From Bilabrum cf. latius (lineage: Eukaryota): DNA of 64,000 bases. The translations under genes and the position numbers were made by a program. Shown here in pieces: positions 59 through 46,783 of this stretch. Location: positions 62,001 through 126,000 of the forward strand of contig OZ237762.1 in assembly GCA_965178125.1 (NCBI GenBank). The letters are read 5' to 3'. A model generated the notes under the pieces. It had not been told where the DNA came from. It was given only the letters and a program-made list of their open reading frames with translations, and made no database searches. Numbering within the stretch: the first letter of the stretch is position 1; every line of letters starts with the position of its first letter.

Positions 59-738
59 ATGCCGCCCAAGTTCGACCCCGCTCAGGCCCAGTACCTTGTT
101 ATGCGCGTGACTGGTGGCGAGGTGGCTGCCCCGTCCGCTCTTGCCCCCAAGCTTGGTCCCCTCGGTCTCGTGAGATGGTTGTATTGATTACTGGAGCTGT
201 TCCCATCCCTGGAGTACCAGGGGCAACGTTGCAGCTAATTCATACTTATCAAATTTGCTTTGCGTCCAAGATCCATGCGGATATAGGAACGTGTTACGTC
301 TACTTCAGCGAGACTTGATTTGTCGAACCGATCGATTCGTGTGCGCAGTCCCCCAAGAAGGTGGGTGATGACATCCAGAAGGGAACTATGGACTGGAAGG
401 GTCTGCGAGTGACCGTCAAGCTGACGATCGTGAACAGGTAGGCCTCCGTGGAAATCCTGCCGTCAGCATCCTCCCTGCTGATCAAGGCTCTTAACGAGCC
501 CGAGCGCGACCGGAAGAAGGGCCCCAAGGACATCAAGCACGATGGCAACCTTACCTTCGACCAGGTGCTGGACATTGCCCGAACCATGCGCCCCAGCTCT
601 ATGGCTAGGGAGTTCAAGGGAACCGTCAAGGAGATCCTCGGAACGTGCAACTCTATCGGCTGCACCGTGGATGGCAAGCAGCCCAGGGACCTGCAGAAGG
701 CCATCACCAAGAACGAGGTGGACGTGCCGGAGGCATGA
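59..738 (+). CDS. RPL12: 60S ribosomal protein L12 (uL11); intron 170-348; in-frame TAG 439-441 read as Gln
   Basis: MPPKFDP...[75 protein letters not shown]; the family has NRQA at the TAG; ends TGA. Confidence 0.97.
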
Positions 739-978
739 ATGGGTTAGCACGCGGATATAGGATACAGCGAGGCATCGTATCGGCTGGACACAATCAGTCC
801 TCCCCGGCGACTGCAGGTTCCATTATGTGAGCCACGGAGCCGGGGTATGTTTGTGGGTAGTCGAATAGAATAAATAGCGATTCTCGTTATAGTTTCAGTA
901 TTGGCGACTCTTGGATTGGAGTCGAGTGCAGCTAGCACCGAACGATCACCAGCTGCGGCACACGCTAGGTTCAGGTTC

Positions 979-3900
979 TCACTGCACTGTCGGGGTGGTT
1001 GGAGGCGTTGGGGTACCGTACTTCCAGCGGTTGGCGCTGCTGTGCAGAGCTGCCAACGCGTTCCTCACTCCGCTGGCGGCCTCCACATGCCCGTGACCCC
1101 CTTCAACTGCCGGGGTGACCTCACCGTTCCCATGCCCGTCCCAACGACCGTGCCTCCCACGCGCCTTCCTTGACCCCTGTTGCCCCACAGGCGCATGGGT
1201 AGACCCCTCCCTCCTTGCCTGCCGCTACCCTGCGCCCAGCCGCACCGTCCTCCCGCCCCTGTCGTATCCCGTGGGCGCCCCCCGCAGCAGGATGGCATCC
1301 AGCACGGGCACCCGCATGAGCACGTACGGTGCCTGGCCCAAGGCAAACCCGCACCTGAGCCAGAAGAGGAGTGCGGCCCCTCGCCACGAGAGAGGGGGTG
1401 CCCACCTGCCTGCAGGCACCTGCCCCCATCCCCAGTGCCCCTCGATGCACCACACCCTCACGCACAGGGCACACAGCACCAGCACGCTCACCGCAGCTGC
1501 GTGATAGCCCCTCAGTCTCCCCAGCTCGCCCCCCCGCACGTGCATCCAGGGAGGCAGCCCCCGCTCAGCAGGAGCAGCTGCAGCACCCCCATCCGGCGCG
1601 GCCTCCTTGTTCCCTGTGCGTGGAGCAGTCTCGCTGGAGCCGAACGGCCACGCGGCCCACGCTGAGCCCCCCGCCGACTGGACACCCCTGTCGGCTGTGC
1701 CACCATCAGCAGTCTCTTGGCAGTCGATGTCCTCACAGCTGCGTTCTCCACCTCTGGTTTCCTGCGCGCCCCCATTCCCCGCCCTGTCCCTGTCTCTATC
1801 GCACAGTGTGAGCAGCCCGCAGTCCCACAGCGGGGCCATGCGGGTCACTGCCAGCGAGCGCCTTCTCTGGGAGCAGCTCGGCAGCCGCAGTGCCCGCCAG
1901 ACGATGGCCCACCAACTGAGCACCACAGCCAACCACACATCGACCAGGGACACAGTCGAGGACCAGGAAGCCAGCCCTGCCTGCCGCGCTGTGGAGCTAT
2001 CTGCAGGTGCAATCGCATGGACCCGCTGCCACTCGCCTCCCTCCCCTGACGTGTCCTGCTCCGAACCAACCGAGGACGAGCTACTCAGCGCACGACTTCG
2101 GACCCTTCTGCTGCTGTTGACTCCCTCCCGCTCTTCCCCCCCTTCCCTCTCGGGGGAATGCGCCTCATCTACCCTTCTTGCAGCCCTGTGCTTGCCCCCC
2201 ACAGCCCTCGAGGTCAGCGGCAGCAGGGCAAAGCAGAGCCCCACCAGCAGCAGCTGCAGCAGCAGCAGATACACGTCCAGCGTGGACACGCGGGGCCCCC
2301 ACCGCGCACAAGGGTGTGCCACTGGTGCACTTACGGGCAGGGGAAATTCGCTGGACACGATCTGGCTGGTGCTGCCACTGCTGCGATTGCCCACAGCAGC
2401 TGCTCCTGCATAGGAACCCCCGTGGACGGACCCGCCCCCGGGCTCCATGACCAGGGCACACAGGACCATGCGGGAGGCCCCTCCCACGAGTCCCCCCAGG
2501 CCAGTCCCCAGGAAGAGGCTCGCCATGAATCCCGCCAGAAACTGCGCCACCTGCCACTCGTCCCTCTTGTCAAGCAGCACCAGTTGCAGCAGCCACAGCA
2601 AGGGACCCAGCACAGGGGTGGCACCGGCTGCCTGCCAGCACCACCACTTCCAATCCCGCGCCCGCCGCCACACGCTGCCTACATGCGGCAGCAGCAGATG
2701 CAGGACCCTTGCCCTGACCTGATCGTACACCTCTAGCATCCTTGCACAGCAGCCCCTGCAGGTCCTCGGGGTGTGCCTACACCCCTCAGAGGCCCAGAGG
2801 TCTCGATACCGACCAGGGGGCCTCGCTGCCACTGGGCTCACCATGGCCTCTGGCTGGAGGGCGGGGCTTAGCATGAGCGAACGACGGGCAGTGTGACGAG
2901 CACTGATGCTTTGAGCAGTCGATGACGTGGAAGACGAAGACGGGGACCCGAAAGCGGTGCGCGGCATCGTGGACCCGGGGCGGCCACTAGTGTGATTGCG
3001 ATTGCGATTGCGGGTGCTGTTGTAGGTGTCGGTCCATGGAATGCCAGCGCCGGCGAGGGAGGGCGTTTGCGGGTGCATATCCATGTCCATGTCCGCCCGC
3101 TGAGGCTGGCGAGAGGCAATGCCATTGTTGTCCAGCTGGGCTGGGGAGGCGGGGCGCTGCACAGCGGGGGGCGCGCTCATGGACCCGTGGGGCTGTGGCT
3201 GGAGCTGTGGCTGCTGGGGCTTGGCCGGGTCTTCAGACGATGAGTCCGTGTCGATGCTCCTGACCGTGTCCCATACACCGCCCTTGAGCTCTGGCTTTGT
3301 GCCATCGATGGAGGCACCCCCGTCCACAAAGGGTGGATGGGTCGGCTCGAGCATGGCATCATCACCTGCACGTATCGATGGACTTGGCACGAGCAAGCTG
3401 GCTCTTGAGCCTCCAGGCTCGCTGTATCCCGCCCCTGCCTCTGTCCCTTCCACCATCAGTGTCCCCGGACCGCCGATGGGCCTGCTCTCGTCGCTCCCCT
3501 CGTGCTGCAGCTCCACACCGAGGTATCGCCGGATGGCTCCTTGCAGCGCGCTTGAGGCGGCCACCTGAACGCGTTCCTCGAGAATGGGTTCCAGCCGAAG
3601 TACAGCCCCCCTCACAAGCGATCGGAGCACTTCAGGCATGTCAGGGTCACCTGCAGCACTGGCAGCGGCGGCCTGCACAGCGGCAGCGATCCCGTCGCGA
3701 ACGCGCGCAGATAACTCCCCTTGAGCAGAGCGACCAACAGCTCTGATAGTACGATTGTATAGGCGGGCGTTCGCCCTTTTCACTATGTCATAGGCCCACC
3801 GAGCCTGCTACGAGAGGCTAGCGATGTACTGCCGCAGAGGGTTTGGTCGTCCTCGAATGGCATCCGCTAGCGCCGCAAGACCAATCATCGGGCCAGCTGC

Positions 3901-4236
3901 AGATGCTCTTATTGATAATAAATCCCGAATTGAGGCTTGCACTAGCTTCAATTCGTCGCCAACTGCACGAATTGCCCATCCTGATGCAGTCCCTAGCGGT
4001 TCCAGGCTTGCTCGAGCCGTTTTACCAATAGATGAGCCCGACAAATTCCGCCAGAATGAGTGAACACACCACCATAATCCCGCTAGGAGCCCAATCTGAG
4101 CAGCTATGGCAGTAGGACTCCGGTTCGAAGCAGCACTCCTCCGGACATGACGAAGGATAAGTCCCAGGGCGACTGCGATCGCCAAAGCTGAGACGGCGCG
4201 GTTTCCCGAGCCCTTTTCATTGTTCAAAGAGGTCAT
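979..4236 (-). CDS. Uncharacterised multi-pass membrane protein (start uncertain)
   Basis: Track ORFs 3808-4290, 1225-3783 and 979-1188 join in one frame through TAGs and end at TGA; hydrophobic segments; DKRDEWQVAQF and PTGYDRGG motifs. Confidence 0.6.
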
Positions 4237-4382
4237 TAGGACACCGGCGACTATCGGAGCACCCAGGATCGCATCCTTCGATAACAACACAGTGTTGCGA
4301 CCTTGAAGACTGTTGACCGTGACGACGAGGGAGACGCATCTCGGGAGTTATTCTTTGCCTCGCGGCAGCTTAATTGCAGAGA

Positions 4383-6772: not shown

Positions 6773-7774
6773 TCATCGGCCCTTTTTCACAATTGCCCCG
6801 TCGATGGCTCGCACAAGCGCATCGTAGGCGGCGAATGTCGCTGACACTTCCACAATGACCCTGCACAGCCGAGGCCCCACGCCCTTGTACAGGCCAAGCA
6901 AGCCGTCCTCCCGCACGGTCGTCGCCAAGCAGTGCGCCAAACCACGATATCTCCCAGCATGCAGCCCCTACATGTTAGTCTTGGCAGTGTCGAATGGCTG
7001 TGTTGCCACCACGCTCACTGCCCCGCTGATGGCGCCTGCACCAGCACTGACCGCCACTTCTCGTGCTCCTGCTGAAACTGCCCCGTCAGCCGATTGGGGA
7101 CTGCTGTGACTTGCCTACCTATCCATCATGGACTCTATGAACCCTCTCGCTTCCGCAAAGCACGCGAATCGAATCGCCTGGTTGAGCGCGATCTTTGTGA
7201 GGGTGGCACCCAGCCCTTGGTACAGGCCCGACAGCCCTTCCTCTCTCGCGATCGTGCGAATGCCATGCCATAAACCATTGTAATGCGGTGTACCTCGATT
7301 AAAGTCCTGAATTAGCTTAACTTGGATAGTGGTCATCGGCGTGACGATTAGTGAAGCTTCGAGCAGCCCGCAGACTACGCCACCAGCAGCGCGTTCCATG
7401 GGCAAAAGACCGGCTCCTGGCTGATGGCGTTTGGTCATATCTACTTTTCGTTCCGACTAGTGGCCAGCAAGGCTGAGTCGCCAATCAGCGAAGGCATTAA
7501 ACACCCCGAAGCGCAGAGCAACTCGTGGAAATGCAAACACGAGGTTACTTGAAATACCACGATAAAATCCTGGGAGCCCGCGTTTGTTCCATGTGCTCGA
7601 GGCAACGTCGAACAAACCCGAAAACTTTGGCTGGAGCTTTGACGCGCTCGCTGCTTGCGAACTTATTTGTAATTGAGTCTTCGTAAGCTCAAACGGGTAC
7701 GATAGGCAAATTTCGAAGCACCCCGCCAGCCCACCAGCAAGAATACCAACAGGATCGAATAATGATGACGCCAT
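6773..7774 (-). CDS. Mitochondrial carrier (SLC25), probably tricarboxylate/citrate carrier-like
   Basis: Three carrier signatures: PFELTKTQLQ, PMTTIQVKLIQ, PFDTAKTNM*GL; TAGs at 7457, 7115 and 6968; TGA stop. Confidence 0.9.
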
Positions 7775-9915: not shown

Positions 9916-12900
9916 ATGTCGGCGAAGGAACCAGAGCCGAGAGGTGAAGGACCGCCTGTTGGGACGCCAACCAAGGAGCAAATTCTTAGGATTGTGAATG
10001 AATTGTCTTCGGACATTGATGCAAATCGTATACGCGCGACAGAGCTGCTCAGTATGGCCAAAAAGACAAGATTAGCGGACTTAGTTGTTGGCCTGATGGC
10101 TGTGAGTTTGCGGGATGTTTCCAAAACAGAATCGTCTTCGGATTGCGACCACCAAATACGTTCTTGCTTATTTGCTGCTCTACACTGTCTCGCAGATCTT
10201 GCAAAACGAGAGCAACCCAGCGGCACGGCACATGGCTGCTGTAGTCCTTAAGGGAGTGCTGCTAGGCATGCGCGGCGAGTCTGCCGGGCTCTTCTTGCTG
10301 CATCAACCAGTGCGAGCGGCAATGAGAAATGGAGTACTTCGTCTTCTTGAAACTGAGCGCATTGCGAGCGTGCGCAACGGCCTCACAATTCTGGCTGGGC
10401 ATCTGGGAGTCGCGCTGGTGACGGACGGCTGGTGGCCGGAGCTCATGCCATGGATTCGGAAAGCTCTGGGCAACAAGAAAGTCCCCGAAATCCGAGTTAG
10501 CGCCCTCCAGATGCTTAGCGAGATGGCCAACACGGTGGCCCACGGCATGCAGGCCGACCACGCCGGCATCGCTGCCGCCCTGCGAGCGAGCATGCAGGAC
10601 GACGCCGCACCGGCCATGGTGCGCGTGGCGGCCGTGCAGTGCGTGGCCTACATTCTCACGGAGTTCGAGCGCTCTGCCTCTGTGGCCGACCCCTTCATGC
10701 CGCTGGGGGCAGGCAGCCTCCGCGTGCTGCAGTCGCTCTACCAGGCACACGACCACGAGGCCTGCCGCAAGTGCCTGCAGGCACTCACCGACGTGGCCAC
10801 ATACCAGCCAGGCGCATTCAGGGCCGCGGACAAGACCATGCTCACGGGCATGCTCTAGATCGCTCCCGTGAATACAGCGCCAGTGCAGCTGCGGTCCGCC
10901 GCCATCGAGCTGGTGCTGGCATACGCCGAGAACGCCTCCTCTGCGGCCAGGAGGATGCCGGAGAACGCGTATGCTAGGCGGACCATCCCCGTACTTTTTG
11001 GAATGCTGCTCGAGGTGGGAGATGACACCGCGGAGGCATGGCTCGGCCGAGAGACCTCGTAGGAATCAGACCCGCACGCGGTGTGCCACGTGGCGGAGCA
11101 GGCCATCGGCAGGCTGGGCTCGTACTTGGGGGCTAAGCGGGTGCTGAACACGGTCCTGTCCATGGCCAATGTGTTCTCTCAGACAGCCGAGCGCAAGAAG
11201 CAGTGGTAGTTTGCCCACGGGGCCGCGCTTGCCCTGGAGGCCTGCGCCAGCTTCTTGCCGGACGACATGCCCGACGAGCAGTACCAGAACGTGGCCGGCA
11301 TGCTGGTCAAGTTGGTGGAGCACCCGCACCCCAGGGTGCAGCAGGTGGCCGGCGAGGCCTTTTACCACCTCGTGGGACAGCACCCACTGACGTTTGCACA
11401 CGCTGCCAGCGCACAGATTTCCCGCGCCATCGGGCGGCTGGTCGCCTCTGATCACCAGCGGGTGCAGAGCCAGGCCTTCGAGCTGCTGGGCGAGTATGCG
11501 GGGCACGGGGTCACGCAGCACGTCAGCAGCATCGCCAAACCGGCTGCTCGCCGGGCCATCGAGCTGCTGGGGGGCACAGGGGGCAGGACCGTGCGGGAGG
11601 CGGCGCTGTCTTGCCTGTCTTTGATCGTGGACAACTGCCCCGAGGAGCTCAGCGAAGAGTACGCCCGGCTCATGCCGATCTTCATCGCCATCGTGGAGAA
11701 CCCGGAGAGAGCGCTCGCGGGGAGGAGCAGAGCGGCGGCGGCGGCGCTGCAAGGAGCGGACTTGAGGGTGGCCCGGGGCCACGCAATCGCGGCTGCGTGC
11801 GGCATGATCCGCAGCGCGGCTCGCTCTGGAGGCCCCATCGGGAACCGTGCCATCGTTTCGGATGGGCCGCGGCTTGTGCGGCTGCTGCTCCCCGTCCTGC
11901 GGGCCAGCGTGCCCCCGGCTGTGGTGCGAGACGCGCAGGAGGCCGCCTCTCGTATCATCGCGGCCAACACGGGTGCCTCGCCGCAGAAGGGGCCCAGGGC
12001 CTCCACGGGGCCCAACACATCGGACGAATTCGCGACGGCGGGCCTCGGTGGCAAGCCTCTGGGTGGGGACGATCCCTGTCGGTAGGATGTAGCCGCTGGG
12101 CTGCAGCAGCTAGCGGGCGTGCTAGGGCCCCGGTTCGTGCCTTTCTTGGATGACGTGATGCCGCTGCTGCTAGGCATGGCACACGCCGGCGTGGACCGCA
12201 AGGAGCTCTCGCAGGAAGAGCGCCTCGCTCAGCACGAGCGGGAGTTTGACCCGGACTACATGGCGGACGGGTACGAGACGTACGAGGGGCTGCACGAGGA
12301 GGAGGCGGTCGCCTACCGGGTGAAGGAGTCCTCTGTCGATGACAAGAACGTGGCGGTGCAGGTGCTGCATCACTTTGCAGAGAAATTCGGCCCATCCACG
12401 CTGCTGGGGAAGTGGGCCATGCCCATGGCTGCGGTGCTGCTGCCCATCATCGCCACCAAGGAGACTCCCTACCACCACTTGAGAGTGCTCGCTGCAGAGG
12501 CAGCCGACAGCGTGCTGGCCGCGCAGGTGTGCTCTGCGGCTGCTTCCTTGTCCGGGGATGCCCTCCAGCTGGCCTGTCGCCAGTCGCTGCTCATGGCTCT
12601 GGGCCCTCTGCTGGACGTGGTATCGAGGAACACCAAGTCGGAAAGCGGGCTGCAGCTGCAGTACGAGGCAGTGAGGCAGATCCGGGGGTGCTTGCTGGCG
12701 GCGTGCGAGGTGCGGCCCCACCGCGTGTCCTGCGAGGGGTTTCTTGAGTCCACCGAGAGGGGCACGGTCAACGGGCCGCAGCTGCCGGCGGGGGCAGGGG
12801 CCTCTGCACCTGCCTCTCCTGGGCCTGGCCCGGCCTCCTCCCCCTCTGGATCTGCATCCAGCTCCACTGCATCCGGACCCGACGCAGCCGCGCTGTCCGA

Positions 12901-14251
12901 GGTGCTGCGAGGAGTGCCCCCGTGGGCGATGATCCCGGGTAGGCCCGTGCAGGGGGGCCAGCTGCTGCAGGACGACACCGAAGGCAACCTGAGGTGGAGG
13001 AGACGATACCGCCCACTGCTGTCGGAGGAGCACTTGGAGCGGGTGCTCATGGTGCTGATGCAGGTGCTGAGGGGGTCCATGCAGCGCGTGGCGACCACCG
13101 TGGCGGAGGTGCGGTCGAATGCGTCCGACTTTGACGAGGACGAGATCGAAGAGGTGATCGCGCAAGTGAGGGAGCTGCAGTCGGTGCAGCAGGAGGTATG
13201 CAGGGCGGTGGGCGGGGTCAGCCTCTCCCACGGCGCGGCGGCCCTGGGTCCTTTGCGAAGGACCGTGTTCAAGGCCATCGAGGAGCACCTCGCGGGGGCC
13301 CACTCGCCGCCCTACAACGTCTTCCTGGCGGCAAGCATGGCGGAGGACGTGGTGGCAGGGTGCGGGCCGGCGGTGGCCCCGGGCCTGTCCAAGATCATGT
13401 CCATCTTTGGGAAGGGGTTCTCCAAGGGATCCATCCCGGCTCTCAAGCGGGCCTCTGTGTACGCCCTGGGGTCCTCTTGCGTGTACCTGGGCCAGCGCAT
13501 GGGCCCCCACCTGAAGCAGGTCATGGGCGCGCTGCACCCCCTCGTGCAAGGCGCCCTCGCCAGGGACAAGGCGCTCGCTGAGAAGAGGGCACCCTTCCCC
13601 GAGCCACCGGCCCCATCGGTGGGCATGCCCGCCCTCGAGGAACAGGCCTTCCGACCTGACCCCTTCGACGTGCAGGAGCAGCACCTCGTCCTGGACAACG
13701 CATGCAGCGCGCTGGGCAAGGTGCTGCACTTCACCATCTGCGGCGGAGGCCCTCGACCTCTGGATGCGGCCGTGAAGGTGCTGGGCGCGGAGGGAGGGCG
13801 CTCCCCTGCGGCGCTGGCCCGCAGCTTCGTGCAATCGCTGCCTCTGAACTACGACCAGGTCGAGTGCAGGTCGGCGGTGCAGCTGCTCGCGTGGCGCGTG
13901 GAGCTGGGTTGTTCTCTGGTGCTAGGCAAGGGGGGCTCCATGGTGCCTAAACTACTGGGCATCTTCGCTTATGCCAGCCACAAGGCAACGGTGCGCACTG
14001 CCTTCGTGCGGGCGGCAGTGGGTCGCGCGGTGAGGACCCTCCGCAGCAAGGCCCCCGCCGGCCTCATCGAGGAGGGGCTCAAACCGCTGCCTGCCAAGCT
14101 CAAGGACGCGCTGGAGGCTGCAGTGCAGTACTCACAATCCCCCGCTGCTTGCGCGGGCGTGCCGTCGGGCGCCCCCGTGTCCCCTGCCAAGGGCGGGGCT
14201 GCCATCGGCGGGGCTGCCGGGTCACCAGTGCCCCCGGGGTCGCCCTGGTGA
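9916..14251 (+). CDS. Importin-beta family HEAT-repeat karyopherin (importin-4/5-like); intron 10102-10195
   Basis: RHMAAVVLK, WWPELMPWI, EHPHPRVQ, LDNACSALGK, SLPLNYDQVE motifs; four in-frame TAGs; TGA stop. Confidence 0.85.
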
Positions 14252-14401
14252 TGTAGCCTTCGGTCACCGGGCGTCCCTTGTGAACACATTGTGCTCCTCT
14301 TGAACCGGGTGGTGCGGGTAGATGGGAAATTATACAATGCCGATTCTCTCCATTCATTCAATCAGAATCGAGACTATTCAGGCTAGATCATGCATCGCAG
14401 C

Positions 14402-15615
14402 TCAAGACGTCGTGGCGTAGTGCTCCTCGTCCGTGGTCTGGTAGGCGATCCCGTCCAAGATGAGCTCCTCGAGGACCTTGCGCACCTGCGCCTCGGGGAC
14501 ACCCTGAGGGGCCAGGTTGGCCACGATGTCTCCCACGAATGCGCCCGTCTCCTCGTCCTTCGAGGTGGCCTTGATCGCCTCCTCCACCTTGCCCTGCAGC
14601 TGGGCCGTGTCCATGCCACCAGCCGGGGCCCCAGCGCTGCCCCCGAACTGCGGGGCCGCCCCCCCGGCGCTTGGCCCGAACCCAGACATGCCACCCGCCG
14701 CCGGGCCGGAGCTAGCGGCAAACCCGCTCCCACCCCCCATCGATGGCGCTGCGCCCACACCATAGGCTGCCGGCCCGCCCGGCACGCCCGGGGCAGCCCC
14801 TGCGCCTGGTGCCCCCGCAGCTCCCCCCGCTTGGTCTGGGTTGGGCAGCGGCCCCTTGGTCCTGACCAGGTGCGTGTAGATGGCGTCCATGAAGTGAGCA
14901 GTCACCTCGTCAAAGTCCTCGATCAGTCGCACGTTATCTGCATTGATGTCAACGCGGCCCCCGTGCACCCGAACCTCCGCTTGCACCATCACCCACGCGC
15001 CCGGGCTGCGAACGCAATGTATTTGGAAAAGGAGCGCAGACTGACATGTAATATGACCATAATTGAGATAATACCCGAAAGCTACGAGGCCACAACATCA
15101 TTCAAATTAGGTTCTTACACTACCTTTGCTTCCAAAAAACCCTTGGTCTCGGTCTCTGCCGCAACTGCTCCAGAATCATGCCATTTCCTGACTGACATTC
15201 GACCGGTGTGATCTTCCATCTTGATAGCGTGAAACGAGGATTCTGCCCGGCTCTCGATGACCCTACCAACTACTCGAACCTGCGACAATGTGGGCAAACA
15301 CTATGTTGTGCCGTCAGCGTGGGAGTACTCTGAAGCAGATGCCCGCGCGAGCTGCTCCCTGGCACTTACCCGATTAACATCTTTACCGTCGATTTGGATA
15401 GAATCATCTCCCGTTTTTGTCTTGATTGCGGTGGCCAATTGCTTCATGGTGACAGATACCAACGTTTTCTGCTGCAAGGAGCCGCGTCCACCAGGGCCAC
15501 CCGCGCCGCTAGGTGGAGTAGCCCCGCTTCCACTCCCCATCCCTCCCATCCCCCCCGCATCAAAGCCTCCGCCACCAAATCCACCACCCATAGATGCCAT
15601 ACCAGCGAAATCCAT
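14402..15615 (-). CDS. RPA2: Replication protein A 32-kDa subunit; two introns (about 15281-15369 and 15006-15117)
   Basis: GGGF N-terminus, TLVSVTMKQL, VRVVGRV, EDHTGRMSVRKW OB fold, C-terminal winged helix GIAYQTTDEEHY. Confidence 0.9.
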
Positions 15616-15851: not shown

Positions 15852-18396
<2,545 letters not shown>

Positions 18397-21500: not shown

Positions 21501-22071
21501 CTCCTGGCTGGGCGAGAGTGGCTCCATTTATGCGTGCAGCATCATTTTGGTTTGTCTGCTTTGCCTATCTTTGCCTCTTCACCGCTGGCAGAACTACTCG
21601 AGCCTTTGGTGCATCTGGCATCCACCGCCTGCGCGGGGCAGATCTCCTGTGCTACCACGCGCTTAGAGTTGCAGACCGTCTTACAATAAATCCAACTGCA
21701 AATGTTAGAGCGTTTCTGTGGTACTGCTTGCCAGCTACTTGTGTATTCACGGCAATAACCCTGTCTTCGTGCACATTTGGTGTTGATCGCCCAGACCTTA
21801 CGATCTGTGGCACTGGGAGTGATACCAATCTCTACGTAAGCTCTGACTTCGACAAAAGCAGGTCTGAAATCTCCGCAAAGGAATCCTGCGTCAAACATCT
21901 GCGCCGTTCGGCCTGGTCATAGGTGCAAAAGAGAAGATTAAAGGGATTCTGGCGCAGTTTACACACTACAATACTAGTATCTCACGCATCGGGGTATGTA
22001 AATGCCAGGGTTGGGCCGTACTCGTTGTCAAAGACCGCCAAGAATACGCCCAAAAGTTCGAAATCGGACAT
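18583..22071 (-). CDS. NPRL2: GATOR1 subunit NPRL2-like protein with long low-complexity inserts; probable short intron near 21.9-22.0 kb
   Basis: VFLAVFDNEYGP, QYHRNALTFAVGF, WDLCVRRVLPCIDGMAHCRAIAEAADV; many in-frame TAGs; TGA stop. Confidence 0.75.
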
Positions 22072-32400: not shown

Positions 32401-35400
32401 GGTCGGAGCGCTCCAAGCTGGTCAAGGCGGGCGAGGAGCGCATCAAGGACCTCGAGAGGAAGAGGAGGAAGCGATCCACCATCATGGCGGCCTCGCCCAT
32501 CAAAGGGGGGCAGGCCAGCGGCGGGGCAGGCGCGGGTGCGGGCGCGTCCGCCGGGGAGGGCGGAGCTGCCCTGGCCTTGGCCACCCTCGCCGAGGTGGAC
32601 GAGGACTACGTGAGGCTGTCGGACCGGAGGGCGGAGGACGTGCTGGAGCCCATGATGGAGGTGGCGTGGGGCCCCATGATGGCCTCGTTCAGCGTGAACC
32701 TGGAGGGCTCCAACGACGCGAGGGTGGTGCAGCTGTGCATCAACGGGTTCAAGCACGCTGTGAGTCTGGCGGGCGTGCTGGGCATGTCGATGGAGAGATC
32801 CGCGCTGCTCGGGGCTCTCGTACGATACACCATGCTCGACTCGCCCACTCGGGCCTTCGGGAACAAGAACGTGCTGTGCTGCCAGGCCGTGGTGGCGCTG
32901 GCCCAGAAGCAGGGCGAGTGGCTCGGTGACGCGTGGGGCGTGGTGCACCGCTGCATCTCGCAGATCGCGAGGCTGCAGGCCCTCGCCTCGGGGGCGCGCG
33001 GGGACTCTGAGATCTTCGGGGCTGCGGCAGTGGCTGCGGCGCGCAACCGGAGCAGGGGCGGGGCTGTGCCCTCGCGCGGGGGCCGCCGGTCCCTGGGCGG
33101 CGTCGGCTCTGGCACCCCAGCCCAGCAGGAGGCTCGCCAGATCGAGAGGCGCAATGCTCAAGCGCTTGCGTCTGCCATCCCAGAGTCCTCGCTGCAGCGC
33201 GTGTACACGAACAGCTGCACGCTCTCCCAGGAGGCCATCGTGGACTTCATCACCCACCTGACGCACGTGTCGCTCGCGGAGCTCCACATCGCGGCACCCA
33301 CAGCGGCGGATCGCGCGGCGGAGGCGACGGCGGCGCAGCGGGGCGGTGCTTCCGGGCCTGGGGCTCAGAGCGGTGCGGGGGGCAGTCCTGCGGGCAAGCA
33401 CCAGGGCGGAGGTGACGGGGAGGGGGCGCGCGTGTACAGCCTGCAGAAGGTGGTGGAGACTGCTGACTATAACCTGCAGGTCAGGGGCAGGCTGACTTGG
33501 TCCAGGCTGTGGGGTTTGCTGAGCAGGGTGTTCACGGCGGTGGGCTGCAGCACGCAGTACCAGCTGGCGCAGTTCGCCATCGACGCCCTAAAGCAGCTGT
33601 CGCTCAAGTTCCTGGACAAGCCCGAGCTGGGCTCCTTCTCCTTCCAGAGGATCTTCCTGTCCCCGTTCGCCGCCATCATGGGGGCGCACCCGCGGGCCAA
33701 GCAGGGCATCAGGGAGCTCATCCTGTACGTGTTCCAGTTCCTGCTGCAGAAGAAGCCCGGCAAGTTCAGGTCCGGCTGGCAGACCGTGTTTGCGGTGCAC
33801 GGCATTGCGGCGCGGGACCCCACGCGGGAGATCATTTCGCTGGCTTTCAACACTGTGCACCAGATCGTGCAGAACCAGTTCCCGCAGGTCGTGAGGAACG
33901 CTGCGTTCGCCGACTTGGTCAACTGCCTGGTTGCATTCGCGTCCAACCCTCAGGCCGACAGCGCGGTGGGAGTCCGCTCTGTGGACCACCTCGCCGAGCT
34001 GGGGGCGCACCTGGCTCGCGGCAGGGTCCCGCTGAGGGATGGGAACGACGAGCACGTGAGGGCTGTGCTGGCGGCGGACAGCGGGTCGGATGGTGTGCCG
34101 CGCAGCACCGGGGGTCAGCCGGCGGACAGGGGTGCGGGTGCGGGTGCGGGTGCACCGGCAGAGAGCAAGGAGAGCAAGGAGGGCGAGGAGGAGGGCAAGG
34201 AGACGGAGGGGGCCGAGGCAGCCCGGCAGGCCTCTTCTTCCTTCGTGGTGCAGCCTGACTCGGGTGTGTTCTACGACATGGACGGCGAGGAGCACTCGGA
34301 CATCAGGAGGGCTTCGGCGGGGCCCATGGGGGAGCCCGACGAGGCCCCCGCTGCGGGGAAGGCTACGGGGCAGGGGCAGAGGGCGGGATTCGAAGACGCG
34401 TCTCCTCGAGGCATCGCGGACAGGCACCTGACGGGCGAGCGCGGCGGCGGCGGCCTGCTGCGACGATTCGATGACCGGCAGGAGCACACGGGTGCGTGGT
34501 GGCCCGTCCTCACCGGGCTCATGCGGCTGGTGGGTGACCCCCGGGAGGACGTGAGGCAGCACTCCCTGGACGTGCTCTTCGCATTGCTGCGGCGCTTCGG
34601 CGGTGGGTTCTCCGAGGGCCTCTGGCACCTGGTGTACACGGGTGTGCTGCTGCCCATTTTCGATGACGCGAGGCACACGGGGGGACACCAGGCCGCGGCC
34701 GACAGGGAACAGAAGGCGGAGGAGGCGGCGGCTGCGGGGAGACACGAGCTGATGCGGTCGAGGGCAGGCTCCTAGGGCGGGGCGGGGGCCCGGCTGGGAG
34801 CCACAGACGCGAGGTGGCTGCAGTCCAGCTGCTTGCCCGCCCTCAGCGCGCTTGTCCGGCTGCAGGCCCGGTTCTTCCCCCGGCTGCGTGCCATGATGCC
34901 CGAGCTGCTGCAGCTGCTGGAGGACTGCATCGCGCAGGAGGTGGAGGGGCTGGCCCGCATCGGTGTGTCGTGCCTGCACCAGCTGCTGGTGGAGGCCGGG
35001 TGGCAGTTCGACGCCGAGTGCTGGGAGATGGTGCTTGCGCTGCTGGGGCGGCTCTTCGTGGCCACCACCCCGAGGGACCTGATGGACTGCGAGACTCATC
35101 TCCTGGGCCCCAGCCCGGGTGATTTCTCCGAGGACGAGGAGGCGGGGGGGGAGGGAGGGCACCCCGTGGTAGTCACCGTGTTCGGGCTCGGCAAGCTGCT
35201 GGCAAGTCGCGAGGACGGCGTGTAGGTGGTGCAGCTGCCCTTTGGCACGCTGTACACCCACGGGGCGGTGAGGGAGGTGGCGGAAGGGGGCGCGGGGGCA
35301 CCCGTCCCTCCCTCCACCCCTGACAAGCCCATGCTGCCCAACGGCGCGCAGCCACCCGCCACCCGTGGTGGTCCAGGGCCAGGCAGGGCCACAGCGCCCG

Positions 35401-36311
35401 TGCCCCGGGCCATGGACCCTCCCCCCGCGCTCCCTTTCAACCCCTCCCGCGTGCTGACCCAGTGCGTGGTGCAGCTGGAGCTGGTCAGCGCCGTGGGTAT
35501 CCTGGCCAACTCGCATGTGGGGGCTCTCACCCTGGGCCAGCTCAAGCAGCTGCTGGGGCTGCTGGAGGAGTGCGCGGATTTCGCACGGCGCTTCAACTCG
35601 AACCGCCCTCTTCGGGAGGCCTTGCTGGAGGCTGGTTTCATGAAGAAAGCCAAGTTCAAGAGGGTGCCCTCCTTGCTGAGGCAGGAGAAGCAGAGCACAG
35701 AGGTGCTGCTGCAGCTGCTGCTTGGCATGCACACCCAGCTGCACGCACAAGGGGGTCTGGAGGGGGAGGGCGGGAAGCGGCACAAACTGGTCCTGCAGCG
35801 GCTGAGGGAGGTGGCGGGCGAGGTGGTGGGGCGGTTCGTGCGTTTGGATGCCTCAGTGGAGGCCATGCGGGTGCAGGCGCAGGCAGAGGCATCGAGCGCC
35901 TCTCAGGCAGCGGCGCGGCGGGCTGCGCAGGGGGGCAGGCGGGTGCAAGACCCAGCCAGGGCGGCGAGGAGCGCGGCTCGATAGGCCGTGTCCGTGGACC
36001 AGTCGGACAGGGAGGTGCTCCGTGAATGCTCGGCTTTTGGCCCGCTCGTGGTTCGGCTGCTGGAGGGGTGCTCCGGCATGTCTGCCGCCGAGTTCCGAGG
36101 CAGCCTGTGGTGGCTTTACCCGCTTCTGGTGCAGCTGATCCCCACGGGGAACCCGGCCGTGCGCAGGGCGCTGCGGGGTATCTTCGAGAACAAGCTGCCT
36201 GCCGTGCTGCCGCTAGATGCCCCTGCCGGCGTGCTGGAGGGCGAGGGCAGCGAGGCCGAGGAGGACGGGGGTGCGGACGCAGCGGGGGCGGCGGCCGGTA
36301 CGTCTGTTTGA
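29495..36311 (+). CDS. Large Sec7-domain ARF guanine-nucleotide exchange factor (BIG1/BIG2/Sec7 class); intron about 29589-29769
   Basis: DCB domain (QLQVVKCLLT, NRTTAKASLTQM), FLNYD, FRLPGEAQKIDRMMEKFA, YSVIMLNTDAHN, HDS regions; five in-frame TAGs. Confidence 0.95.
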
Positions 36312-36453: not shown

Positions 36454-39400
36454 ATGGCGGGTAGCGCTACTCCAAGTTCGGATTGGGAAGTCGGCGAATA
36501 TGTACTGGAGCGGGTTCTAGGCTCTGGAAGCTTTGCGAAGGTATACAGAGCCAGGCACAAGGAAACGGGGGAGACGTACGCTTGCAAGGTGATCCAGCTG
36601 CAATCCATCGATGCGAAAACCAGGAAAACAATTGAATCTGAGGTTACGGTACTCAAAGAAATAAGGCATCCAAACATTGGTGGGTTGTGCAGGCATCATT
36701 GTTAGTCCGCCTCCGCCTGAGCAGCGCAACCACCACTCCATTGCAGCATGTTTCTTGTGGCCTTATCGCAGTTAGGCTAGTGGACGTGATGCAGTCTAAA
36801 TCGCACATATTTCTCATGCTTGAGTTTGCGGCCGGTGGAGATCTATCTGACGCTCTTGTGCAGCACAATAAGGCCCTGAACGAGAAAGAGGTTCGGTACT
36901 TACTATGTCAGATCGCGGCCGGCCTAAAGGTACTGCACGGAGCTAGTATCGTGCACCGTGACCTGAAGCCATAGAATATCCTAGTGGAGGATGCCAAGGC
37001 ATTTCCCCGCAGCCGCGTGATGCTGGGTGACTTCGGGTTCGCGAGGCGGCTAGAGGTTGCTGAACTCGCCTAGACGCTGTGCGGCTCGCCACTGTACATG
37101 GCCCCAGAGCTGCTCAGGATGGAGTCGTACGATGCACGATGCGACCTGTGGAGCGTCGGGGTGATCCTCTACCAGCTGCTCTCGTCCCAGCTTCCCTACG
37201 GCGGCGCCAACCACCTCGATCTACTGCGGAACATCGACGCCGCAGGGCCCCGCAAGCTGCCCGAAGACGTGGCAGCGCGTACCTCGGCCCCGATGCGGCG
37301 GCTGCTCGGCGGCCTGCTGCAGCCAGACCCCCTCGTCAGGGCCAGCTTCCACGAGTTCTTCAGGTCGCCAGCAGTGCGGGCTCCCGAGGGGTTTGACGTG
37401 AGCAAACTGAAAGGGGCGGGGACAGAGGGGGAGGCCGAAAGTGGGGGTGCTTATGGGGAGCAGGCGAAGGGCGGGGGCAAGGCAGGGGCAGGACCGGCGA
37501 CACCTATGCAGAGAGGCATGTCTGGTGCAGGCCAGCTTGAAGGAGCTGGAGGTTCATCATCGTCTGCTCCTGGTGCGGGGGGGGCAGCTGGCGATGTGGA
37601 AGGAGAAGGGGAGGGGCTGCTGCCTGATGACTCGCTGGAGAGACTCCTGGGGGACATGAAGGGCATGGTACGTGGGGGCCGGGTGCTGGTGCGAGGGCTG
37701 CAGGAGGACCCAAGTGCAGGTGGCACCAGGAACACAGCCAGCCTGGAGGGTGCAGCGCACGGTCGCTCCCCGCCCGGCCCAGCCGAGACATCGCCCACAT
37801 CGCAGGTGCAGGTGCACAGTCGACTGACACTGGATCCGGCCGCGCATCTCTCCCGACTGCCCCCTCGCGTGGCAGTGCGCGAGCTGTGGGAGGGCTGTCT
37901 GGAGCAGCAGGCGCAGGCGCGCTGCACGGGGACTGGAGGCCGGATGGGGGCAGGTGACCGTGCAGCAAACTCGCTGTCGCTGCACGCCGCTGCGATGCAG
38001 GGGTCGGCGCACAGCAGCGGCATATGGGAGCCCCAGCTCTCGAGTGTGACGAGTGCGGTGGCAGGTGCAGGTGGTTCGGGTGACGGCGCGACGCGGCAGA
38101 GGCTAGCTGCGGATCGCAAGGCGCGGTGCGTCGAGATGTTCCGCTTCCTGGGTCATGGCGCGGCGCCGCGTCCATCCGCCACCCGTGCTGTGCTCGAAGC
38201 CCGCCTGCGGGCTGCGGGGCTGCAACTCGGGCCGGTCGCGATGAAGGAGACAGAGACGGAGGCAGAGGCAGGGGCAGGGGCAGGGGCAGGGGCAGGGGCA
38301 GCATCGGGGAGTCGGGGCGAAGATGCCTCCGACGGTGCATTGCGCGGTAGTGGCAGCGGCAGCACGTCTCATTAGGAAGAAGACTCGCCGGCCGGGCCCC
38401 GGTCTCCGAACGTTGTTCCCCTCCGGCGCGGAGGCACCGCGGCTGGGATCGCTGGGTCTGCCTCGGCTGTCACGGATGGGTCCCACACTGGGGTGGGCGG
38501 GGGCAGGCAGGGCTCGAAAGTCGTTCCCGAGGCGGGGACTGGGGCAGGCACGGTCGAAGCGGGGGCGCGCGCCGCTCTGCTGCAGGACGCCGCCGGTCTC
38601 TCTATCCAGACAGACCACCCCCTCGCAGACACAGCAGCCCAGCACGCCAGCCTGTCTGACTCCCAGAGACCCCCGCTGCCTCCTGCAGTCGCAGTTGCCC
38701 TACCAGCGCCCTCTGCAGGCTGGCACCCACCCCCCTCGTCTTCCTCCTCATAGCGTGGCTCCCCCGCCACCGCAACCGACGGAGCCTCGGACTCGTCCAG
38801 TCCCTCTGGGGCGGGGGCGGGGCAGGGGCACGGAGGTGCCTTCGAGGTGGTGGGAGGGTCCTCCCCCAGGGCACAGACACCTTCGCGGGCAGGAACAGGG
38901 AACAGTGGCCGGGTGCTGACTCCTCCCCGAGTCAGGACAGGATCGGGCGCCAGCTCAAGGCGGGGCTCGGGGTCCCCTCTGGTGGAGGGCCCAGGGGAGG
39001 GGTCAGCTACACCGGGGGAGAGCGGCAGCGGGGGCAGCGACAGTCCGCAGTGGGGCCTCCGCGCCGATGGAAACACGGATGCAAGCCGGATGCAACCTGA
39101 GGAGGCGGTGGCACTGCCACTCGGACACAGGAACAAGGAAGATACCAGCAGTGCCCCCGGTGGAGATTCAGGAGGCAGTGCTGACCCTGGCCCGCGTGAC
39201 GGCAGACCGCTGGCTCTCGTCCCCGATGGCACCACGGGGCTGCCAGCGCACATAGTCATGGTCCCGCGGGGCCGGACGTCGATCGACTCTAGAATGGTGG
39301 CCGCACAGCAGGAAGCACACGCCTGTCGGGCAGTGGCCCAGTTCGGTATCTCGGTGGCAGGGGAAGCAGCGGGAGCGCCCGTGCCGCTGCCCTGGCTGCG

Positions 39401-40361
39401 AACTGGTGGCAAGGCCAAGGGGGTCGATGCAGGCGATAGAATAGGAGCTGCAGGCGATGGGATAGGAGCTGCAGTGGATGGATAGCACGGCTGGTGGGTG
39501 ACGCAGGAGGCTCTCCCGGCCGCTGGATCGCAGGAGCCGCTGGTCAGCGCGGAGCTGCTGCTGGGCGCCCTTGAGGAGCAGGCGACATCTGCTGAGGTTG
39601 GGAGGAGGAGGAAGGAGGAAGAGACGGAGAACGAGGGAGGGGGTAGTTCGGGGGCGGGACCCGCTGCTGCCAGTGCTATTCCTGGGGCCCTGCACGCTTC
39701 ACTCATGTAGCGCGTGGCAGATCGCATGGAAGCAGCGGCCGCTCGTCGACAGGCCGCGGCAGTGTCCTTGCTGCTGGCCGCATCTGCCATGTGCGAGGGT
39801 CTTGCCCTGAGAGCGGCAGGGGCGGGGCCGCAGCTGGCCGGTCTGGAGCGCTGGGCCCTGGGGCTGGGCCGGCGGTGCGAGGCCGAGGCGCGCCCCTGCA
39901 TCCGGGCGCTGGCCCGACTGGAGCCGGGGGACAGGCCGCCGCTGCCGCCGCCTGCTGACATGTGCATGCAGGCTGCCGCGAGGGTGGTGCAGCGGGCGGC
40001 GGCGCTGCAGTGCGTTGCACCCGGATGTGCGGCGGTCGTGGCTCACGCAAGCCTCGGTCGCGACTTGGCCCGGGCTGCGTGGAGCGGAGCAGTGAACGGA
40101 CATGTTGGCGTGGATGAGCACAATCACCAGCAGGGACAGGGACAGGGAGGAGGAGAGCACGCGGGGCGAGCGAGGAGGGATGCGCTGCAGAACCCGCTTG
40201 CGAGACGAGCAGCAGCTCTGGAGCTTGTGGCGCACCAAGCCATCGTGCTGGCTGGAACTGAAGCGGCTGGTGCGAAGAGTGCAATTGCAGGCAAGGAGAG
40301 GAATGGGGTGCGAATAGAGGGCAAGCAGGATGAAGAGGAGAGCAAGGGCAAGGAGGCGTGA
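36454..40361 (+). CDS. ATG1/ULK-family Ser/Thr kinase; intron about 36680-36770
   Basis: LGSGSFAKVY, HRDLKP*NIL (family HRDLKPQNIL), DFGFARRL, A*TLCGSPLYMAPE; six TAGs; TGA stop. Confidence 0.85.
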
Positions 40362-40488
40362 TGATTCGGATTATCCGCGCAATAGCCTAGGTCTACGTGG
40401 CTGATTCGGAATCAGAACACATGCATCACCTTGATAATTACCCTTTTTACGCGTTCAGTCCTGCCTGCAATCCATACTATTAATGCGT

Positions 40489-43517: not shown

Positions 43518-43659
43518 GCGGTGTGCCAGTGAGGTGTGTGAGTCGATTCACGGGATGGATCTCGCTAAACTGCTCGCTTTCGATTGATGGATTTCGCTGA
43601 TCTGCTCGCTTTCGATTTCACTTAATTTATCTGATAGTAGCAGCTTTCGATCAAATCAA

Positions 43660-45075
43660 TTATGTTGCCTCGCCCCTGTCGCTTCGTGGCACGCCCGCCG
43701 GCCCATCCTTGAGCCCTTCCCAGATATGTTCCTACTCGCACATACCGGGTATACCTTCATCCTTGTCCACACCCCTACCCTCCTCCAGCAGCCCCACCTC
43801 GCTGCCTCCTCGCTCCAGCGCCCCGTACGCAACCTCGGGTCTTGTCCATTCCCTCTCTTCATCACATCCCCCGCTTTGCCTCCACGCCCCCGCGCCCTCT
43901 TCGCTGCAGCACCACAGATCGCACCACACCACCTCGCGCTGCAATCTCGCCGACCTGCACCCTTGCATGTGTCTGCACCCGCACATCATCGACAGCTCTG
44001 CATACAGCCCTACTACCATCCCAAGCAGCACTACAGACTGCACCGCCCCGGCCATCCATAGCATGACCCGCGCCTGCACCATGCGCCCCGTCATGTGCCC
44101 GAGTGGCCGGTGAGGGAGGGGCAGCACCTCGCGACCCAGGAACAGTGGCACGCTCGCGACTGAGGCGCCCATAATGGGCCCGCTGGACTTGGACGACAAG
44201 GCTATAATCATAACAAACAGGCCGGTGAAGAACATGGCAGCGCCTGCCGGCATGCTGCAGAAGAGGCCGACGGAGGGATCGCACCCCCGGGCGCGAGCGG
44301 TTCGAAGCTGCGAGCATCGCAAGCAGGCGAGCGCTAGCGAGCTCAGGATTGCGGCAATGAGACAGGGGATCCAAGTGTTGACAATGTATCTTCGAACGCT
44401 CGGTTCGGGTCCGAAGTTAGGGAACACTGCAACGTCTGCATCGTCCAGTCCGCCCGTGGTGTAGATGGTTGCCGTGCCGAGCTAAACGGTAGTGGCAAGA
44501 CCAAACATCAAATGGCACCCAAGCCGCATGAAATACCTTATGAATAAGAGCAAGGCAGGAAGTAATTGATCATCATTATCCTCTTTCTTTCTGTTCTCCT
44601 AGATAGGCTGATTGCCGCCGATCATCGCGCCGTCAGGCTGGGACTCAATGATCACCTGCTGAGCCGATACGAACATGAGCAAGTACGAGGCCGCAGCAAT
44701 GATCTGTGCGATAATGCCTCTGCTTAGCTTCTTTGCGCCAGCATTGTCGATACAAAGGTGCTCTGGAATCTCGCTGCTATTCGTAGATACAGTCTGGTTG
44801 CCCTAGGACGCGCAAACTACTAGAGTCTACGTGCTTGATACCGACTTGAGGTCCGCGTCGCACTCTCCGTAGCAATTGAAATTCTTGTTGGGATTGGGCT
44901 GCAGGGCGCTTTGCGTTGCCCAAATCAGGGCAGCTGCAAGTGCGACATAGAAAGTGGATCCAACCAGGCAGGCACCCCGCGCTCTTGCCTTGCTCAGGGA
45001 AACATAATAGGCCCCGAACGGTTCAAACAAAAGTCCGAGAGACACATCTCGGGTAAGGCTGCCGCAACTAGTCAT
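43660..45075 (-). CDS. Hypothetical multi-pass membrane protein; the only host gene here that appears to end in TAA
   Basis: One frame through five TAGs with several hydrophobic helices. Confidence 0.55.
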
Positions 45076-45235
45076 TTGTTTGTGCTCGGCATGCACACCG
45101 GGCCGGCTCCCAGTCTGGTGCGGTGGCGAAGGCTCGTGGAAACGTCGCGGAAAGGCACGATGCAGAAACAAGAAAGAAGGGAATCCTCGCACGCACATGT
45201 ATGTATCGCCCTTGCATTCAAGCACACCCCGGACC

Positions 45236-46783
45236 TCAATTTCCCTCCTCTCCGAATTCCTTGGTCCAATCGTCGAACTGCTTGAGCTCGTCCGCCCCCA
45301 CCGTGGCCTTTGCCCTCTTCATGACCTGCACAAAGTCCGCCGCCGTGACCTTGGGCACCCCCAGGTCATCTCCCTCCAAATCAGCGATGGTCTTGGCCTC
45401 CGCGCCGGGGGCACGAGGGTCGCACGGCTCGTACTTGCCAGTCTCATGGTCTCTTCTAAAGTGCGTGGCTCCACGGATGCGCCTCACTGGCTCGTACAGG
45501 GCCTCGTTGACCACGTGCGAGATGTCCGACCCGCTCATCCCCTCGGACATGACACCCATCGAGTCGAAATCGGAGTCTCCCAGCGTGTGCAGGGTCTTCC
45601 CGATGTGGATCTTGAACATGACCCGCCTGGCATCCGCGTCAGGCAGCGGTATGTAGATCCTCTTCTGGAACCTCCGCCGCATGGCCGCATCGATAGACCA
45701 GGGTGTGTTGGTGGCCCCCAGCACCAGCACGCCCTGGTTGTCCTTGCCCACCCCCTGCATCTGCACCAGGAACTCGTTCAGCACCCTCCTCGAGGAGTCG
45801 CTCTGGTCCCCGCTCCTGCTCCCGCACAGGGAGTCGCACTCGTCGATGAAGATGATGCTGGGCTTCTTGGCGCGGGCAAGGGCAAAGAGGGCACGCACGA
45901 GCTTCTCGCTCTCGCCCTGCCACTTGGACACCAAGTCACTCGAGGACACGGCCAGGAAATGAGAGTCCGCTTCGGTTGCAACCGCCTTGGCGAGGTAGGA
46001 CTTGCCGGTGCCGGGCGGGCCGTACATGAGGATGCCCTGCCAGGGCTTGCGCTTGCCCTGAAACAGCTGGGGGAACTTGACCGGCATAATCACAGCTTCC
46101 TATAAAGCAGCCTTAGCGGCGGCCAGGCCAGCAACGTCCGTCCATTTCACATTGGGCTTCTCGGACACGACCGCACCTGCCAGCCCGCCCATCAGCCTCT
46201 TCTGCTCCGCATCCATGCCCTCCTCTGCAGCGGGGTCGCCCTTCGTGGCCGACGCGGAGCCTCCCGCCGCGGCAGCACCGCCATCGTGCCCATCCTTGAT
46301 AATCTTTTTTAGCTATTCTGCTCGCACCATGTACTCTTCAGCTTTGGCTCCTATGCTCTTCTTCTGCACCTCGCTCTTGGAATCTGCGAAGGCAACACTT
46401 GGGTAGCAGGGCACGCAGTGCTTGTATGGATATACAAAAACCATGCTTGAACGCAAGGATAGCATCATACCATGAATTGCAATGGCTAGCTGCAACGTGC
46501 ACTTCAACAGGCAAAACAGACTCTGTCCTAGAGAAACGCATGATGCCCATGTCTCGATTCGGCAACAATAACACGCTAAATTTTGGCAGCATGATTAGCT
46601 TTGCAATGGCTAATGCAATTGCAAACTGAGAGGAATCGTCTCACAAGTTATCACATGAAGAAATCGCTCCAACGCCTTTTCGTACAAGTCCAGAGCTTTG
46701 GTATAGTCTTTCGCCCTATCAGCATCGATTGCCTCCTTTACCTTAGCAAGTGCATCGTTGAATACCGCGTTCGTGTCCGCCAT
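45236..46783 (-). CDS. VPS4: ESCRT AAA-ATPase Vps4; intron about 46384-46644
   Basis: MIT domain, [61 protein letters not shown]. Confidence 0.96.

Follow-up and report, generated by a model that had tools for sequence, protein, structure and literature searches.

The 64,000-nucleotide stretch of DNA analyzed here (the window; positions are counted from its first letter) appears to be nuclear DNA of a stramenopile related to Cafeteria, in which UAG encodes glutamine (Gln), genes usually terminate at UGA, and UAA does not serve as a sense codon. We give this reading a probability of roughly 80%. UAG is shown by DNA comparison to be a translated codon that behaves as a predicted synonym of CAG. 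The code is of a known, rare kind in a new lineage, and a second species and a mobile element share it.

The evidence comes mainly from VPS4. A metagenome scan with the VPS4 of the window found a contig of 4.2 kb (L001, positions 1–4215), with a GC content of 54% compared with 62% for the window. The two VPS4 proteins are identical at 353 of 384 aligned residues (92%), and the L001 gene contains five in-frame TAG codons and ends in TGA. Both VPS4 TAGs of the window are CAG in L001, and the four TAGs in the main exon of L001 are CAG in the window. When the TAG sites of the pair are combined, CAG is found at 6/7 and a codon for Glu at 1/7. About 4% of the aligned VPS4 positions have Gln codons, and by our own arithmetic the probability of finding CAG at six of six sites by chance is of the order of 1e-8. 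We regard this TAG/CAG exchange as decisive for the predicted reading of TAG as Gln. As the L001 gene also has TAG in frame and TGA as its stop, the code is common to a second, related organism.

Other VPS4 sequences were found as well. Two public VPS4 gene calls from the same or a very close organism (P0002 and P0121) are truncated fragments. P0121 is 99% identical and begins at the first Met following an in-frame TAG, so the gene caller of its source collection takes TAG as a stop. Six further metagenome contigs (L028, L042, L043, L044, L050, and L052) are AT-rich (38–48% GC) and carry VPS4 genes 52–59% identical to that of the window, in which TAA as well as TAG occurs in frame. These contigs probably belong to organisms with UAR (UAA and UAG) = Gln, such as ciliates, unrelated to the window lineage.

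In-frame stop codons in the host genes

The first 58.8 kb of the window have a GC content of 56–70%, and the final 5.2 kb are at about 30% GC. When TAG is read as a residue, the GC-rich portion is a dense run of eukaryotic genes with few, short introns. Family support was obtained for RPL12, a mitochondrial carrier, an importin-5-like protein (IPO5), RPA2, an SnRK1/AMPK-like kinase, NPR2, a BIG/Sec7 ARF-GEF, a ULK/ATG1-like kinase, and VPS4, and also for an EGF-domain protein, a short-chain dehydrogenase (SDR), an amidohydrolase, and a REX1B-domain protein. Several open reading frames (ORFs) of the window matched no family. The located host features are as follows.

59 to 738, plus strand: RPL12 (uL11), exon 1 from 59, an intron, exon 2 from about 343 to 738, TGA at 736–738
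6773 to 7774, minus strand: mitochondrial carrier, Pfam Mito_carr E value 5e-56, three in-frame TAGs, TGA stop
10226 to 14251, plus strand: importin-5-like gene, Pfam TPR_IPO5 and importin repeats, four in-frame TAGs, TGA stop
14400 to 15600, minus strand: RPA2, short introns, one of them in frame and containing TAG, another opening with GTAAG
16435 to 18396, plus strand: last exon of the SnRK1/AMPK-like kinase, Pfam Pkinase, AdenylateSensor and KA1, one in-frame TAG, TGA stop
18583 to 21840, minus strand: NPR2-like gene, Pfam NPR2 E value 5e-11, at most eight in-frame TAGs, mainly in low-complexity sequence, TGA stop
23542 to 24420, minus strand: short-chain dehydrogenase, Pfam adh_short_C2 E value 1e-55, without TAG, TGA stop
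29760 to 36311, plus strand: BIG/Sec7 ARF-GEF, open frame of 2,183 amino acids, five in-frame TAGs, TGA stop
36771 to 40361, plus strand: ULK/ATG1-like kinase, Pfam Pkinase, six in-frame TAGs, TGA stop
43660 to 45318: ORF ending in TAA, unverified
45236 to 46783, minus strand: VPS4, PDB E value 3e-129, exon 1 (MIT domain) from about 46783, TGA stop

The single in-frame TAG of RPL12 is at 439–441 (NRxA, where x is the TAG), and a phmmer search of PDB with this protein gave an E value of 7e-51. The carrier TAG at 6968–6970 lies within the third carrier signature (KTNMxG), and the ULK TAG at 36972–36974 lies within HRDLKPxN. In VPS4, the main exon runs from 45236 to about 46390, with TAGs at 46313–46315 and 46100–46102 (motifs RAExLKK and ALxEAVI). 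The coordinates given for these sites in the initial annotation, which had been made from the window alone (RPL12 439, carrier 6968, ULK 36972, and the VPS4 motifs), were all correct. The BIG frame is spanned by five Pfam domains, from DCB to BIG2_C, and has 343 homologues at E ≤ 1e-20. A word-based homology search with importin-5 gave no match at E ≤ 1e-10, for which low-complexity words were held responsible.

At the ORF level, 20 gene candidates were counted within 59–46783, with in-frame TAG in 18 and none in two (the SDR and the ORF unk41772). In RPA2, three TAGs are probably non-coding, two being upstream and one in the likely in-frame intron, so TAG counts from raw ORFs slightly overstate the coding TAGs; the TAA closing the RPA2 ORF is part of the intron start GTAAG. 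The two TAGs of REX1B, at ORF residues 11 and 18, may precede the start. After these doubtful cases were considered, 16 to 18 of the 20 candidates contain TAG, in agreement with the earlier estimate of about 17 of about 21 genes.

Codons were counted in 11 segments in which homology fixes the frame, because counting in other frames would be circular. The 8,391 in-frame codons of these segments include 30 TAG, 0 TAA, and 0 TGA. As a chance control, codons were also counted in the remaining five frames of this DNA; after scaling to 8,391 codons, these gave 40 TAG, 16 TAA, and 98 TGA. The density of TAG in frame is thus about 75% of that out of frame, which indicates that TAG is hardly avoided and acts as an ordinary codon, while TAA and TGA are excluded. 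In-frame TAG is present in nine of the 11 segments. Ungapped homologous blocks enclose at least ten of the TAGs (RPL12 one, VPS4 two, ULK two, carrier one, IPO5 three, BIG one), which are therefore neither introns nor gene ends. ORF length was also considered as a test of the code and was dropped, since reading TGA as sense also yields many long ORFs in DNA of 62% GC.

All 11 segments terminate in TGA, at or near the homologous C-termini, and UGA is therefore the usual terminator. The absence of in-frame TAA and TGA, the TGA gene ends, and the retention of UGA as a stop, all proposed previously, were confirmed by these counts. Among 18 ORFs, 16 end in TGA and two in TAA; one of the latter is the ORF closed within the RPA2 intron, and the other is the unverified ORF at 43660–45318.

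TAG terminates none of the 11 segments, although this sample is small. UAG might still be ambiguous, read as Gln within genes and used elsewhere as a context-dependent terminator, as in the Condylostoma or Blastocrithidia type. The sample consists of 20 genes, in which TAG was read through throughout, and a TAG end followed by a short in-frame tail would escape notice in genes that have no homologues. However, VPS4, RPL12, and the primase-helicase gene of the AT-rich element described below reach the homologous C-terminus with TGA or TAA, and the final TAGs of BIG and ULK are more than 100 codons ahead of the stop, that of BIG being within the span of its C-terminal Pfam domain. We therefore consider an ambiguous UAG improbable, although slightly less so than the other alternatives.

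The AT-rich element and the status of UAA

The lack of TAA in the host genes carries only mild weight because these genes are GC-rich. The GC content at third codon positions (GC3) is 80–98% in the best genes, and CAA is just 12% as frequent as CAG. If TAA were used like CAA, about 3.6 TAA codons would be expected; none was seen, and the probability of seeing none is about 0.03. The AT-rich end of the window allows UAA to be evaluated at a different base composition. Its features are as follows.

56380 to 58793: tandem array of an 82-bp unit in 29.4 copies (Tandem Repeats Finder, 97% matches, 70% GC), its end coinciding exactly with the start of the insert
58794 to 64000: AT-rich insert (about 30% GC), mobile-element or virus-like, continuing beyond the window end
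60825 to 63623, plus strand: Prim-Pol and helicase replication gene, 932 amino acids, Pfam Prim-Pol E value 9e-14, TAA stop

The replication gene contains 11 TAG, 1 CAG, and 25 CAA codons, with no TGA and no internal TAA. Three small neighboring ORFs, unverified as genes, contain eight TAGs together, and each ends in TAA. In total, the four ORFs of the element (1,179 codons) have 19 TAG, 3 CAG, 36 CAA, and 0 internal TAA, and 4/4 end in TAA. With CAA:CAG at 12 to 1 and 19 TAGs, the lack of any internal TAA cannot be explained by composition.

The replication protein has 946 homologues at E ≤ 1e-3. It was matched to NCBIfam CyRepA1 with an E value of 2e-33, below the family cut-off; the likeness of its helicase part to a plasmid replication family is likewise below the cut-off. 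Its closest relative, the full-length protein P0256, shares 800 of 930 residues (86%) and has Gln at 8 of the 11 TAG sites of the window gene. These Gln residues should be encoded by CAA or CAG, because the gene caller of the source collection of P0256 takes TAG as a stop. The P0256 gene thus appears to lack TAG, and the hosts of this element family may include some with the code change and others without it. The TAA of the replication gene falls two residues beyond the last residue of P0256.

That UAA is not a sense codon is well supported by these data, and we infer that UAA terminates host genes as well. The earlier claim that UAA remains a stop therefore stood in part. The absence of TAA from the 8,391 host codons and from the interior of the 1,179 element codons agrees with it, as do the TAA ends of the element ORFs, while a TAA end verified by homology was found in none of the host genes.

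It could be argued that UAA and UAG both encode Gln (UAR = Gln, the type of NCBI table 6) and that TAA is simply too rare in the GC-rich part of the window to be seen, for which the GC3 values, the rarity of CAA, and the 3.6 expected TAA codons leave some room. The counts in the 30%-GC element contradict this, as TAA is absent from the interior of its ORFs and closes all four of them, in the primase-helicase gene at the very place where the closest relative ends. Moreover, the VPS4 loci from metagenomes with TAA and TAG in frame are AT-rich and merely 52–59% identical to that of the window. UAR = Gln is, in our estimate, a little less probable even than an ambiguous UAG.

We rate at the same low level the possibility that the TAG stops are real in the genome, with the mRNA corrected by U-to-C editing to CAG or with inefficient readthrough lacking a dedicated tRNA. 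Editing would produce the same TAG/CAG exchange between relatives as seen in VPS4. However, it would be needed at about 30 sites in 9/11 host segments and at 19 sites in an AT-rich mobile element, and the in-frame TAG density of about 75% of that out of frame is the behavior of an ordinary codon. A costly readthrough is also hard to square with the near-total replacement of CAG by TAG in the replication gene (11 versus 1). We know of no nuclear U-to-C editing system of such kind in stramenopiles.

With UAG read as Gln, this near-complete swap would be consistent with neutral C-to-T drift under AT pressure, TAG being equal to CAG. It would imply a long residence of the element in hosts with this code. 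The insert looks like one end of a virophage-, polinton-like virus (PLV)-, or plasmid-like element that would use the variant code of its host. In the approximately 5.2 kb of the element inside the window, neither a terminal inverted repeat nor a gene for a capsid protein, ATPase, protease, or integrase was seen. A scan of a viral contig collection with the replication protein found no relative, and a PDB search found none.

Pfam gave no family in ten ORFs at 46.8–55.8 kb. The region 49489–53361 is repeat-rich without recognizable genes and contains 39-bp tandem arrays at 49715–50557 and 50728–50907 and a 111-bp repeat. Two minus-strand ORFs of about 0.9 kb each (51365–52300 and 52480–53361) have near-identical translations and no Pfam family.

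The residue encoded by TAG

Besides the VPS4 pair, conserved positions in protein families were used to evaluate the residue. The RPL12 TAG is opposite Gln in 5/5 printed PDB alignments, and the first ULK TAG (HRDLKPxN) is opposite Gln in 5/5 ULK1 alignments; these two sites are diagnostic for Gln as the predicted residue. In the replication protein of the element, three of the 11 TAG sites are in columns dominated by Gln (133, 81, and 146 of the best 150 homologues), the last of these being in a helicase motif, and the other eight columns are variable. At the first VPS4 site, the column is Q 30, K 30, and E 20 among 120 homologues. Rough log-odds from the columns of 17 usable sites are +5.3 for Gln and −5.1 for Lys as the runner-up; for six host-only sites, the values are +3.6 and −0.4, respectively. 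Leu and Ser are far below Gln. The assignment of TAG to Gln in the initial annotation is thus upheld by the VPS4 pair (6/7 CAG), by the AT-rich element, and by the sites in RPL12 and ULK where Gln is conserved.

Several observations weigh against the overall reading. The majority of host TAGs are at variable positions that do not point to Gln, and family alignments alone are weak for this reason. The second VPS4 site is in a column with K 110 and Q 9 of 120 homologues. The TAG at BIG residue 93 is in a column of G/A/T, abutting a conserved VQLQV block, and the remaining four BIG TAGs are mostly opposite gaps in lineage-specific insertions and are nearly uninformative. In the PDB alignment with IPO5, the residues facing the importin-5 TAGs are K, E, K, and S. 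The second ULK TAG is opposite Ala in 5/5 ULK1 alignments, and three printed PDB alignments have T, Q, and N at the TAG in the carrier signature. The fifth VPS4 TAG of L001, in the MIT-domain exon (exon 1), is opposite Glu in the window, and at the remaining three of the 11 element TAG sites the residues of P0256 are D, E, and K. In the membrane protein beside VPS4, five TAG sites are opposite L, P, S, L, and R in the comparison with L001; these pairs were given little weight because the protein is poorly conserved and the alignments are weak. With respect to UAA, no host gene among those in the window has a TAA stop confirmed by homology. An assembly mis-join could, in principle, account for the AT-rich element, yet the element has the same code. 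The phylogenetic placement given below is derived from one gene only, with compositional bias flagged in the query and Cafeteria rows.

The membrane protein just mentioned is the downstream neighbor of VPS4 in both L001 and the window.

Some of these sites could be taken to mean that TAG stands for a different residue, Lys or Glu being the best after Gln, as suggested by the second VPS4 site (K 110/120), the K, E, and K opposite the IPO5 TAGs, and the Glu opposite one L001 TAG. The RPL12 and ULK sites, with Gln in 5/5 alignments each, and the element columns with Gln at 133/150 and 146/150 argue against it, as do the six TAG/CAG pairs in 92%-identical VPS4 orthologues and the difference in log-odds (Gln +5.3, Lys −5.1). 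We consider a residue other than Gln very improbable. An artefact, be it from pseudogenes, from errors in sequencing, or from a contig that is chimeric or a contaminant, is the least probable explanation of all; the junction of GC-rich and AT-rich DNA at about 58.8 kb beside the tandem array could be an assembly join, but just one stop codon of three occurs in frame, the frames are open for up to 2,183 codons, 14 listed sequencing runs from 9 studies contain some or all of the first 10 kb, and the independent contig L001 has the same pattern.

Host placement and comparison with known codes

The best named homologues of the BIG protein are from Cafeteria burkhardae (45% identity), Nannochloropsis, oomycetes, and diatoms. 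A maximum likelihood tree of 35 BIG sequences, a single gene, placed the window as sister to C. burkhardae and one metagenome sequence (Shimodaira-Hasegawa-like approximate likelihood ratio test, SH-aLRT, 99). The group of the window and C. burkhardae is nested in a clade of 11 rows (SH-aLRT 100), beyond which the named neighbors are a labyrinthulomycete, oomycetes, Nannochloropsis, and diatoms. This clade includes a eukprot transcript with the prefix GECG, which we take to be from Halocafeteria; this is unconfirmed, and the preprint on the Halocafeteria genome does not contain the prefix. VPS4 gave no taxonomic information on the host. The GC content of the window is about 62%, compared with about 70% for Cafeteria and 46.8% for Halocafeteria. 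The host is therefore read as a heterotrophic stramenopile of the bicosoecid neighborhood, probably a relative of Cafeteria and neither Cafeteria nor Halocafeteria itself. A probable stramenopile had also been proposed in the initial annotation, and the BIG homologues and the BIG tree support that proposal.

Among the listed sequencing runs, 14 (9 studies) contain the first 10 kb of the window in part or in full, and six of these contain half or more of the sampled words. The best-matching run may be the source sample. No RNA-type run is on record among the listed runs containing the first 10 kb. A tRNA scan found no tRNA gene in the 64-kb window, an Rfam scan matched no family, and neither 18S nor eRF1 is within the window.

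As a mechanism, UAG would be decoded by a predicted tRNA-Gln with the anticodon CUA, which would be unable to pair with UAA, and eRF1 would have lost or weakened its recognition of UAG. A tRNA-Gln(CUA) together with an eRF1 change is the mechanism put forward for Iotanema (PMC5304391), where eRF1 carries a T32G change.

A wider account can be proposed, and we hold it to be only somewhat better than an even bet. This would be the first nuclear code change in stramenopiles (UAG = Gln; UAA and UGA stops), arisen within bicosoecids and present in at least two species, the organism of the window and that of L001. It would have lasted long enough for the CAG-to-TAG conversion of the element. The host code would then filter viruses and mobile elements, and the TAG-free relative with 86% identity would mark the other side of that barrier.

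Changes of the nuclear code are rare, and UAA and UAG almost always shift together, so lineages that split the two codons test the idea that release-factor constraints couple them. A GC-rich stramenopile with UAG = Gln would represent an independent origin in a major group for which no literature case was found. Because the sequenced C. burkhardae, with the standard code, is near, eRF1, tRNA-Gln, and glutaminyl-tRNA synthetase could be compared over a short distance. In practice, standard gene callers cut the proteins of such an organism at TAG, as in the public VPS4 fragments. With the AT-rich element in the same contig, there is an unusual opportunity to see how a eukaryotic virus or mobile element tracks the variant code of its host.

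In the literature on stramenopiles and bicosoecids, no nuclear UAG reassignment or other code change was found, most subscription journals and supplements being outside the coverage. No eukaryotic mobile element or virophage with a UAG = Gln code was found in the literature either. The earlier statement that uncoupled UAG reassignment is known in few lineages agrees with McGowan et al. (2024, PMC11687900), who list more Gln cases than the initial annotation did. UAG alone is Gln there in Iotanema spirale, in Protocruzia tuzeti, and in two ciliate lineages of the phyllopharyngeans. The same source gives frequent code changes in ciliates.

The AT-rich insert can be compared with the endogenous mavirus-like elements (EMALEs) of C. 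burkhardae (Hackl et al. 2021, PMC8547959). Both are low-GC inserts in a high-GC genome, and both have a primase/helicase gene near one end of the element. They differ in that the insert of the window is known from about 5 kb, with Prim-Pol, helicase, and small ORFs and no capsid gene seen. In the parts of that paper that were covered, no passage on the genetic code turned up.

Of the known cellular codes, that of Iotanema spirale (Panek et al. 2017, PMC5304391) is alike in that UAG alone has become Gln, with UAA kept as a stop in Iotanema and probably here. It differs in that Iotanema belongs to Metamonada and that UAA is the dominant stop there, whereas TGA ends 11/11 supported host segments here. 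The lineages with UAR = Gln (Ulvophyceae, Hexamita, Streblomastix, Amoeboaphelidium, and many ciliates; PMC11687900) share the change from stop to Gln including UAG, but UAA is also Gln there, whereas in the window TAA does not occur in frame, not even in genes of 30% GC, which it ends. In the rhizarian exLh and in Scotinosphaera, UAG is uncoupled from UAA as well, but it has been reassigned to other amino acids, Leu and Ser, respectively (PMC11687900). Ciliates and phages provide further cases of the table.

Ciliate genomes are typically AT-rich, and in phages the recoding of TAG is often linked to late genes. Protocruzia tuzeti and the phyllopharyngean ciliates have the same codon table as that proposed here by an independent origin (PMC11687900), and the present case is a stramenopile with 62% GC. 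The name "genetic code 15" (TAG = Gln) was given for recoded gut phages, and on paper their table is also the same, with TAA and TGA as stops (PMC9523058). In those phages, however, the recoding is the phage's own and the bacterium uses the standard code, whereas here the variant would be a cellular nuclear code that the resident element follows.

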